From a virus (taxonomy: Duplodnaviria; Heunggongvirae; Uroviricota; Caudoviricetes), in the IMG/VR virus record IMGVR_UViG_2526164598_000015: a DNA stretch of 39,465 nt. The stretch is one strand, 5' to 3'. Position numbers and translations under genes: made by a program. The notes under the pieces were generated by a model. That model made no database searches. It was not told the origin of the DNA and saw only the letters and a list, made by a program, of their open reading frames with translations. Each line of letters begins with the position of its first letter. The first letter of the stretch is position 1. This document shows positions 8,484-9,471 of this stretch, piece by piece.

Positions 8484-8906
8484 GTGGCAAAAGTTTTTAC
8501 ACAAGAAGAGCGGGAAAAAATTAAAGGGCAGGTTGTTGAACTCGTACGCCAGAGTGGGCGCGAGACGTTACGACAACTGGAAACTAAAACTGGGGCAACA
8601 AGATATCTGATGAGCGTTCTGGCCAGAGAGCTGGTTGCCAGTGGCGATGTATACAACTCTGGTTACGGGTTATTCCCGTCTGAACAGGCGCGTAAGGACT
8701 GGCAAAATGCCCGTAAAAAGCTCTCAAGGGCAAAGCTGAAGAAACCATCTGCGGTTGATCCGGACCTTATCTGGTCATTACCTGACGGAGAAATACGTCG
8801 CTACGACAGGCGTCAGAACATAATCTGTCGCGAGTGCCGGAAGAGTGAGGTTATGCAGCGAGTGCTGGCGTTTTATCAGGGTAATTTTCAGGAGGTGATG
8901 GCGTGA
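8484..8906 (+). CDS. Hypothetical protein (140 aa), possible DNA-binding
   Basis: GTG start at 8484 with AGGAGG RBS; translationally coupled to next gene (GTGA overlap). Confidence 0.55.
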   Translation: MAKVFTQEEREKIKGQVVELVRQSGRETLRQLETKTGATRYLMSVLARELVASGDVYNSGYGLFPSEQARKDWQNARKKLSRAKLKKPSAVDPDLIWSLPDGEIRRYDRRQNIICRECRKSEVMQRVLAFYQGNFQEVMA

Positions 8907-9199
8907 GAGTGAGAGTCTATATCGCCGGTCCAATGACCGGGTATAAAAATTTCAACCGTGAGGCGTTTCACAATGCGGAAGAGGAACTGAAACGGGAAGG
9001 GCATACCGTTTTAAATCCGGCTGTGCTTCCGGATGGGCTGACACAGCCGCACTACATGGATATTTGCATGGCAATGATTCGTTGTGTGGATGCGATTTAC
9101 ATGCTGAAAGGCTGGCAGCGGTCAGCAGGTGCTAAGGCAGAACTGGCGCTGGCGGAGAAACTGGGGCATGCAGTTATTTTCCAGGAGGAGGTACAGTGA
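8903..9199 (+). CDS. DUF4406-like protein (nucleoside 2-deoxyribosyltransferase-like fold candidate)
   Basis: 98 aa; N-terminal VYIAGPMTG motif typical of this family as recalled; AGGAGG RBS; stop overlaps next start. Confidence 0.55.
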   Translation: MRVRVYIAGPMTGYKNFNREAFHNAEEELKREGHTVLNPAVLPDGLTQPHYMDICMAMIRCVDAIYMLKGWQRSAGAKAELALAEKLGHAVIFQEEVQ

Positions 9200-9471
9200 A
9201 TATCGACGCAACAATGACGATTGGTACGGCCCTCAATACGGGGCTGGCGCTTCTTGGTTGGTGCTACATCATGTTCTGCTCATGGCGGTGGCTGTCACTG
9301 ATGTTACTGAAAGAATGGAATAAACGCTGTAAACAGACGCAGCGGCAGAAGGCAATGAATGCGTTTTTTGAGACCTTCGATATTGACAGTATAGAACCAG
9401 GAGAGCCAGCTCGCGTGATTAGCAGAGGTGACGTTGTAATTCTTGTATACCGGAGTGAAGAGAAAGCATAA
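9196..9471 (+). CDS. Small membrane protein (91 aa), hypothetical
   Basis: GTG start with AGGAGGAGG RBS; one hydrophobic helix (LALLGWCYIMFCSWRWLSLMLL). Confidence 0.5.
   Translation: MNIDATMTIGTALNTGLALLGWCYIMFCSWRWLSLMLLKEWNKRCKQTQRQKAMNAFFETFDIDSIEPGEPARVISRGDVVILVYRSEEKA

Follow-up and report, generated by a model that had tools for sequence, protein, structure and literature searches.

Three small coupled genes, one of them a DUF4406 gene, in a probable ren/nin-like accessory slot of a lambdoid Escherichia coli prophage

The DNA analysed here, IMG/VR virus record IMGVR_UViG_2526164598_000015, is a lambdoid prophage of Escherichia coli; we call its whole length of 39,465 nucleotides (nt) the window, and all coordinates are positions in it. 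Our subject is the interval 8484–9471, which is filled by three short open reading frames (ORFs) on the + strand: ORF1 (8484–8906, 140 amino acids (aa)), ORF2 (8903–9199, 98 aa) and ORF3 (9196–9471, 91 aa). They belong to the families DUF977, DUF4406 and DUF4752, respectively, with ORF1 residues 1–136 lying on positions 1–134 of the 134 in the Pfam model (PF06163; E 6.3e-32, 110.9 bits, cut-off 22.1), ORF2 residues 4–93 on positions 2–91 of 91 (PF14359; E 1e-37, 128.8 bits, cut-off 22) and ORF3 residues 7–90 on positions 1–84 of 84 (PF15944; E 3.8e-43, 145.9 bits, cut-off 27). RefSeq annotates the same three coding sequences under the same family names in near-identical E. coli genomes, where the copies are 97–100% identical to those of the window. 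All three genes are under purifying selection, the ratio of nonsynonymous to synonymous substitution (dN/dS) between prophage alleles being 0.21 for DUF977, 0.03–0.15 for DUF4406 and 0.14–0.22 for DUF4752. Because of the full-length Pfam matches, the RefSeq calls and these dN/dS values of 0.03–0.22, the three ORFs are real genes and not chance ORFs. An Rfam scan of 8484–9471 gave no match, and none of the three proteins matched an NCBIfam model or, at E ≤ 0.1, a PADLOC defence model.

The three genes are chained to one another by 4-nt GTGA start/stop overlaps at both junctions (8903–8906 and 9196–9199), and an AGGAGG lies 4–7 nt 5′ of each GTG start. The AGGAGG sites are part of a repeated 16-nt ribosome-binding cassette, GGTAATTTTCAGGAGG, of which the first copy (8464–8479, + strand) is found just 5′ of the ORF1 start, and the second, also exact (8880–8895, + strand), inside the 3′ end of ORF1, where it serves ORF2. 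A third, degenerate copy, GTTATTTTCCAGGAGG (9173–9188, + strand, 81% match), lies inside the 3′ end of ORF2 and serves ORF3. At three mismatches or fewer the window holds six matches to the cassette, against 0.24 expected by chance, and copies 1 and 2 are also present in three related prophages (our loci L001, L002 and L004). The overlaps, together with a ribosome-binding site at each start, indicate that ORF1, ORF2 and ORF3 are translationally coupled. This had been proposed in the initial annotation, a reading of the letters of the DNA, whose coordinates, overlaps and strong ribosome-binding sites for three chained ORFs of 140, 98 and 91 aa all proved correct.

The same annotation spoke of an operon of three genes, and here the comparison with the surrounding DNA was less favourable. 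The sole promoter-like site 5′ of the three ORFs on the + strand is a PR-like promoter at 6591–6620, before a P22-Cro-like gene; a consensus scan found no promoter-like site on that strand from 6620 to 9919, and no T-tailed terminator was found after 9471. The three genes are thus not bracketed by a promoter and a terminator of their own, as far as a consensus scan can tell, and a dedicated operon is not what we find. Since no promoter-like site separates the PR-like site from position 9919, the genes would be read within the long early-right transcript.

ORF2 carries the motif YIAGPMTG at residues 6–13, from which membership in DUF4406 had been anticipated; the Pfam match given above bears this out. 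It also matches phrog_355, which is named nucleoside deoxyribosyltransferase. By sequence the protein nevertheless stays outside the family of nucleoside 2′-deoxyribosyltransferases (NDTs) proper: its score against Pfam Nuc_deoxyrib_tr (PF05014) is below the gathering score (13.3 bits vs 28.8, E 0.096), and phmmer and profile searches of the PDB sequences returned no relatives and no NDT. The AlphaFold2 model, built with 47 homologues, is a confident one (predicted local distance difference test (pLDDT) 92.3, predicted template modelling score (pTM) 0.85) and has the topology strand1-helix1-strand2-helix2-strand3-helix3-strand4, ending after strand 4 at residue 93. A Foldseek search of the PDB with this model gave NDTs first (2a0k, E 7.8e-5, TMq 0.76), followed by DNPH1, MilB, BcmB and BlsM, which have the flavodoxin-like NDT fold in common with ORF2; the model matches the DUF1937 fold as well. 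These targets are 120–165 residues long; ORF2, which stops after strand 4, is thus a truncated version. The model therefore upholds the earlier suggestion of a fold related to NDTs, and on its basis we assign ORF2 the NDT/DNPH1 fold. The closest solved structure is the DUF1937 protein 1t1j, a structural-genomics protein, but it is only 19% identical to ORF2, belongs to a separate Pfam family and is itself uncharacterised.

The NDT/DNPH1 superfamily is marked by a (S/D)-x-G-x-x-x-E motif with the glutamate on helix 3, and by a tyrosine after strand 1. ORF2 has both, so that Y6, S74, G76 and E80 make up a putative, DNPH1-like active site. In 241 DUF4406 representatives S74 is conserved in 100%, E80 in 99%, G76 in 98% and Y6 in 92% (with phenylalanine in a further 7%). 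Classical NDTs carry an aspartate six positions before the nucleophile; the invariant serine at that place in ORF2 suggests an enzyme that acts on 5′-phosphorylated substrates. DNPH1 (human/rat Rcl, a 2′-deoxynucleoside 5′-phosphate N-hydrolase) is the closest comparison; the human sequence that we used was checked against PDB 8qhr and is identical to it save for the engineered E55Q and N-terminal tag residues. Its catalytic triad is Y24/D80/E104, of which E104 forms a covalent deoxyribose-5-phosphate intermediate, and the phosphate is held by S98 and by S128′ of the partner subunit (PMC10603095). An hhalign comparison of the 241-sequence DUF4406 profile with DNPH1 is weak, and we count it only because it is co-linear (query 2–98 to DNPH1 20–122) and is in accord with the fold matches; in it Y6 lies opposite Y24, S74 opposite S98, G76 opposite G100 and E80 opposite E104, the nucleophile. 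The 47-sequence profile failed to align with DNPH1, and phmmer finds no sequence similarity between the two proteins. By its fold and its nucleophile motif ORF2 is thus a member of the NDT superfamily, outside the NDT family proper, and its closest functional analogues are DNPH1/Rcl and, among CMP N-glycosidases, MilB, BcmB and BlsM. With the site residues and the modelled fold pointing the same way, it is probably an active enzyme of the N-glycosidase type.

DUF4406 is a large family, with 17,663 representatives at 50% identity. It is found in 23% of complete E. coli genomes and in 529 of 50,697 phage records, mainly those of Arthrobacter, Vibrio, Gordonia and Mycobacterium phages, where its usual label is nucleoside deoxyribosyltransferase. 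Homologues longer than ORF2 exist (up to 358 aa), and no other Pfam domain was found in any of them. As a separate observation, the DUF4406 gene is frameshifted in the prophage of E. coli strain ATCC 43896 (L001, 9420–9715) and intact in the window, with the pattern reversed for the antiterminator gene Q (see below); the two prophages are otherwise 99.9% identical and carry different single-base disruptions.

ORF1 brings the locus into contact with phage lambda. It matches phrog_142, “Ren-like exclusion protein”, at 1.2e-48, a PHROG into which lambda Ren falls as well (1.6e-41). In a BLASTP comparison of the two proteins the C-terminal motif NIICRECRKSEVMQRVLAFY of ORF1, of the form CxxCRxSxxMxRVLAFY, aligned to NLVFKECRQSAAMKRVLAVY of lambda Ren (E 2e-6). 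The position is also the same: ORF1 follows directly after the replication gene, as lambda ren follows directly after the replication genes O and P in the PR operon. The common PHROG, the common C-terminal motif and the place right after the replication genes lead us to identify ORF1 as a homologue of lambda Ren, a relationship that the initial annotation had missed. The two are not close, lambda Ren having 96 aa against the 140 of ORF1, falling below the Pfam DUF977 model that ORF1 matches, and resembling ORF1 pairwise over about 20 residues only.

The homologue search with ORF1 gave only sequences at least 88% identical to it, and the AlphaFold2 model is therefore confident for the N-terminal winged helix only. 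Residues 1–83 (block means mostly >90) form a winged helix and one further helix, with H-H-H-hairpin topology, while the C-terminal part is poorly modelled. Lambda Ren shares the N-terminal winged helix and also matches a MarR-type PHROG. Foldseek with the ORF1 model found nothing beyond generic winged-helix regulators (MarR, GntR and IclR types; all at E ≥ 0.014), and a sequence search of the PDB gave chance matches only. Mutants of lambda ren are sensitive to Rex exclusion, and the gene is dispensable for growth; to our knowledge, the mechanism of the Ren family has never been worked out. One description of lambda Ren calls it “likely involved in DNA replication”, and two-hybrid tests showed it to interact with Rex proteins (bioRxiv 10.1101/2021.04.19.439022). 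By this likeness ORF1 probably acts around the phage replication complex, modulating replication or exclusion there.

ORF3 is an ordinary member of DUF4752 and matches phrog_667, a group of unknown function. It consists of a hydrophobic N-terminal segment (approximately residues 9–40), a basic stretch, KEWNKRCKQTQRQK, and a C-terminal domain of about 45 aa. This three-part pattern recurs in homologues of 24–28% identity, the first segment staying hydrophobic in character and the basic stretch being kept, which makes anchoring in the membrane by the N terminus plausible. The earlier description of a small membrane protein stands to this extent; the Kyte-Doolittle maximum over 19 residues, at 1.41, is modest and under the usual 1.6.

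Do these genes form a unit? We compared 80 DUF4406 loci, each from a different species-representative genome, and sought the partners within 6 kb. A DUF977 homologue was present in two of the 80, one of them an E. coli-like contig, and a DUF4752 homologue likewise in two. The immediate neighbours of DUF4406 elsewhere are mixed (DnaB, lambda-P, RusA, Dam and C5 methylases, DUF968, lysozyme, integrase), and Pfam counts of the flanking genes revealed no conserved partner, no family occurring in more than four of about 78 loci. Among 5426 complete E. coli genomes, counted by DNA similarity, 4234 have DNA similar to the region (DUF977), 1223 to DUF4406 and 178 to DUF4752, and just 23 have the full trio; by annotation, the 4234 mostly carry DUF977 alone. 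Other combinations are readily found. In O157:H7 an unrelated gene stands upstream of DUF4406 and DUF4752, strain 2014C-3057 has the order DUF977, DUF4406, RseB-domain gene, and a TraR/DksA-type (DksA-like zinc-finger) gene adjoins DUF4752 in other strains and, by annotation, in Stx phages.

The breaks between these arrangements are sharp. In an alignment of four prophages, homology starts and stops exactly at the Shine-Dalgarno/stop-start junctions around DUF4406: similarity to the O157 prophage is lost upstream of approximately cassette copy 2, and downstream the homology between prophages stops right after cassette copy 3. The rare co-occurrence, the E. coli counts, the alternative neighbours and the homology breaks at gene boundaries lead us to read the three genes as independently exchangeable parts, and not as a dedicated operon or a single module. 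One of the compared loci, L004, is a 3 kb contig (JAIHTM010000290.1) labelled as a Collinsella sp. metagenome-assembled genome; it has DUF977 and DUF4406, the latter encoding a protein 97% identical to that of the window, and is most likely a mis-binned fragment of an E. coli prophage.

The gene order in the window is integrase (at the window start; its gene adjoins potC in strain ATCC 43896), cI-like repressor (5919–6557, − strand), the P22-Cro-like gene, a YdaT/cII-like gene, a replication gene, the three ORFs and a Q-family antiterminator, and it corresponds to the lambda order O-P-ren-nin-Q; the prophage is likely to be of the Rac/Qin type. The replication initiator/organiser gene (7367–8443, + strand, 358 aa; phrog_3729, 2.9e-256) lies directly 5′ of ORF1. 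The N-terminal part of its product is replisome-organiser-like, the C-terminal part is similar to phrog_1701, “DnaD-like helicase loader”, and the final 24 residues are similar to those that end DnaT. Within the gene, at 7501–7539 and 7761–7809, GTCACG repeats with 10-bp spacing look like origin iterons within an initiator gene (compare lambda O). By the window ORFs, Pfam and PHROGs, there is no separate loader gene of the P or DnaC type after this replication gene, just as the initial annotation had remarked; related prophages, unlike the window, do carry a separate loader gene.

Since ORF1 is a homologue of Ren in the position of Ren, we consider it likely that 8484–9471 is a ren/nin-like accessory slot of the early-right (PR) operon, holding three small, independently swappable genes, with the DUF4406 protein as a stand-alone (deoxy)nucleotide N-glycosidase. 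This explanation builds on points established above: that the genes are real, the families to which they belong, the fold and conserved site residues of ORF2, and the mosaic independence of the genes and their place in the operon. The interval lies after the replication gene and ahead of the Q antiterminator gene, and small non-essential genes would be swapped in it at conserved junctions. On induction the three genes would be co-transcribed with the replication gene, and they are coupled in translation through the GTGA overlaps and the reused Shine-Dalgarno cassette. ORF1, the winged-helix Ren homologue, would modulate replication or exclusion around the replication complex, and ORF3 would be a small protein with an N-terminal membrane anchor. 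ORF2 would bind a (deoxy)nucleoside 5′-monophosphate, the phosphate being held by Ser74 and the Gly9–Gly13 loop; Glu80 would then attack C1′, so that the base leaves and a covalent ribosyl-5-phosphate-enzyme intermediate forms, to be hydrolysed subsequently. In this way ORF2 would edit or sanitise the nucleotide pool while phage DNA is being made. The lambda nin region (ninB to ninI, non-essential genes between the replication genes and Q) occupies the same slot and is likewise made of mosaic genes that are short, overlap one another, are transcribed from PR and are exchanged among lambdoid phages; it differs in that none of its families is found within 8484–9471.

Several points weigh against this explanation. 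The hhalign comparison of DUF4406 and DNPH1 has a pairwise E of 0.0065 and a probability of 5.8%. The candidate catalytic acid of ORF2, D53 in the motif YMDIC, is conserved in only 69%, and its equivalence to DNPH1 D80 is ambiguous, as the spacing to the glutamate is 27 residues vs 24 in DNPH1, and hhalign places D80 opposite A57. ORF2 also has no counterpart of the E55/H56 helical element of DNPH1, and, ending after strand 4, it is without the C-terminal helical extension and strand that give DNPH1 both S128′, donated across the dimer, and part of the dimer interface; substrate binding may therefore differ from that of DNPH1. Literature searches for DUF4406, DUF977 and DUF4752 found no member with a tested function, and no functional study came up for DUF1937 or for deoxyribosyltransferase in combination with prophage or anti-defence terms. 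Finally, DUF977 is usually the upstream neighbour of DUF4406 in E. coli, and there may be a lineage-specific functional link between the two within this species.

That last point also speaks for taking the three genes as one nucleotide-centric conflict module, as the initial annotation suggested, in which a DUF4406 enzyme, a DNA-binding DUF977 protein and a DUF4752 membrane protein would work together: in E. coli the commonest upstream neighbour of DUF4752 is in turn DUF4406, translational coupling is tight, and the NDT/TIR-like fold recurs in conflict systems, with retron effectors mentioned among the literature matches. Start/stop overlaps are, however, the norm in such phage early operons, and many 4-nt junctions occur at the compared loci. 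Outside the lineage either partner accompanies DUF4406 in just 2 of 80 loci, the full trio is found in 23 E. coli genomes against 1223 with DUF4406, each gene has other partners, homology breaks at the gene boundaries, and PADLOC matches none of the three proteins, so that the module is in our view highly improbable. Hardly credible at all is a role for ORF1 as substitute for the missing P/DnaC-type helicase loader, which would make it an essential replication gene of the prophage. No separate loader gene follows the replication gene, the order replication gene then LygF/DUF977 also occurs in isolated or induced phages, and the published description of Ren, with its Rex contacts in two-hybrid tests, would suit a replication protein; the suggestion in the initial annotation that the 140-aa protein may act in replication agrees with that description. 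A substitute loader it is not, because other prophages have DUF977 together with replication protein P or a DnaC/DnaI-type loader. ORF1 offers only a winged helix and a short motif, with no ATPase domain, the 358-aa replication protein has its own loader-like C-terminal domain and DnaT-like tail, and lambda grows without ren.

For ORF2 itself, a true NDT that swaps bases between deoxynucleosides for salvage, and does not hydrolyse nucleotides, is an alternative to an N-glycosidase. NDTs are its best Foldseek matches (T. brucei 2a0k and C. thermalis NDT among them, at 16–24% identity and TMq 0.71–0.76), their first-strand motif is also YIAGP-like, phrog_355 and many GenBank phage records carry the name, and the same Tyr/Glu chemistry would serve transfer. 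We nonetheless hold it to be unlikely, given the Pfam score of less than half the cut-off and the invariant serine, in place of an acidic residue, six positions before the nucleophile, whose DNPH1 equivalent S98 holds the 5′-phosphate. ORF2 is, moreover, some 40–60 residues shorter and lacks the C-terminal elements of NDTs, and it is encoded by a phage accessory gene, whereas NDTs are salvage enzymes. Its company of phage accessory genes could also suit counter-defence, with the DUF4406 protein a hydrolase or non-catalytic binder of NAD+, ADP-ribose or signalling nucleotides, directed at TIR, Thoeris or CBASS-type immunity; but the conserved Ser-x-Gly-x3-Glu fits DNPH1, the literature search gave no support and no defence or anti-defence profile matched, and we rate this as very unlikely. 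Only slightly less so is a phage-borne nucleotide-pool editor with a role in conflict. Such an enzyme would destroy modified deoxynucleoside monophosphates (e.g., 5-hydroxymethyl-dCMP or 5-hydroxymethyl-dUMP) and so starve competing hypermodified phages, or, alternatively, would remove toxic nucleotide analogues made by host defences; the choice of substrate comes from the relatives MilB (“CMP/hydroxymethyl CMP hydrolase”) and DNPH1, which act on related hydroxymethylated pyrimidine nucleotides.

Further features of the prophage lie downstream. Between ORF3 and Q, at 9520–9577, there are two G+C-rich hairpins (GAGGG...CCCTC and GCCGCCC-GAAA-GGGCGGT) with no T tail and with folding energies like those of shuffled sequence (z −0.9); they might be sites of termination or processing as in the lambda nin region. 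The Q-family gene itself (9586–10109) is split by a frameshift, with seven A at approximately 9745–9751 vs eight in ATCC 43896, where Q is intact (174 aa); the window shows two ORFs in its place (9574–9864 and 9753–10109). The split may reflect true inactivation, a tract prone to slippage or an error in sequencing. A second Q-like gene (13990–14544; DUF1133, weak Phage_antitermQ match) follows a DUF968 gene and a RusA gene annotated in the ATCC 43896 relative, so the prophage carries two antiterminator-type genes.

Just after Q, on the − strand at 10115–11524, is a two-gene cassette with a G+C content of 34–37%, coding first for a DUF6731 protein of 304 aa and next for a hydrophobic, possibly membrane, protein of 159 aa, which has weak PADLOC matches to RexB (E 1.5e-3) and PDC-M18B (E 6.6e-3). 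We take the sizes and gene order to resemble those of RexA/RexB. The cassette occurs in 19 of the 5426 E. coli genomes, always at least 99% identical, and may be a recently acquired moron of the abortive-infection type, in the same prophage as a Ren-like gene. A tie between the Ren-like gene and this RexB-like cassette was considered and rejected, the 19 genomes standing against 4234 with DUF977 DNA. Beyond it are a hok/sok-type toxin-antitoxin locus at 11806–11980 (Rfam sok, 108 bits; hokD is annotated in the relative) and, at 16223–16472, three tRNA genes (Met-CAT, Arg-TCG and Arg-TCT) downstream of a DNA methyltransferase gene.

As an annotated feature the trio is already known, under the same labels in RefSeq, and it is a piece of routine lambdoid prophage mosaic. 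Within the Ren family, DUF977 adds a second, longer branch. What remains of value is DUF4406, which is very large, phage-borne and under strong purifying selection. Here it presents an intact, DNPH1-like putative active site in a scaffold of 98 residues, and with it a cheap and well-defined biochemical hypothesis; a role as pool editor, if true, would assign a function to the more than 17,000 sequence clusters of this family.

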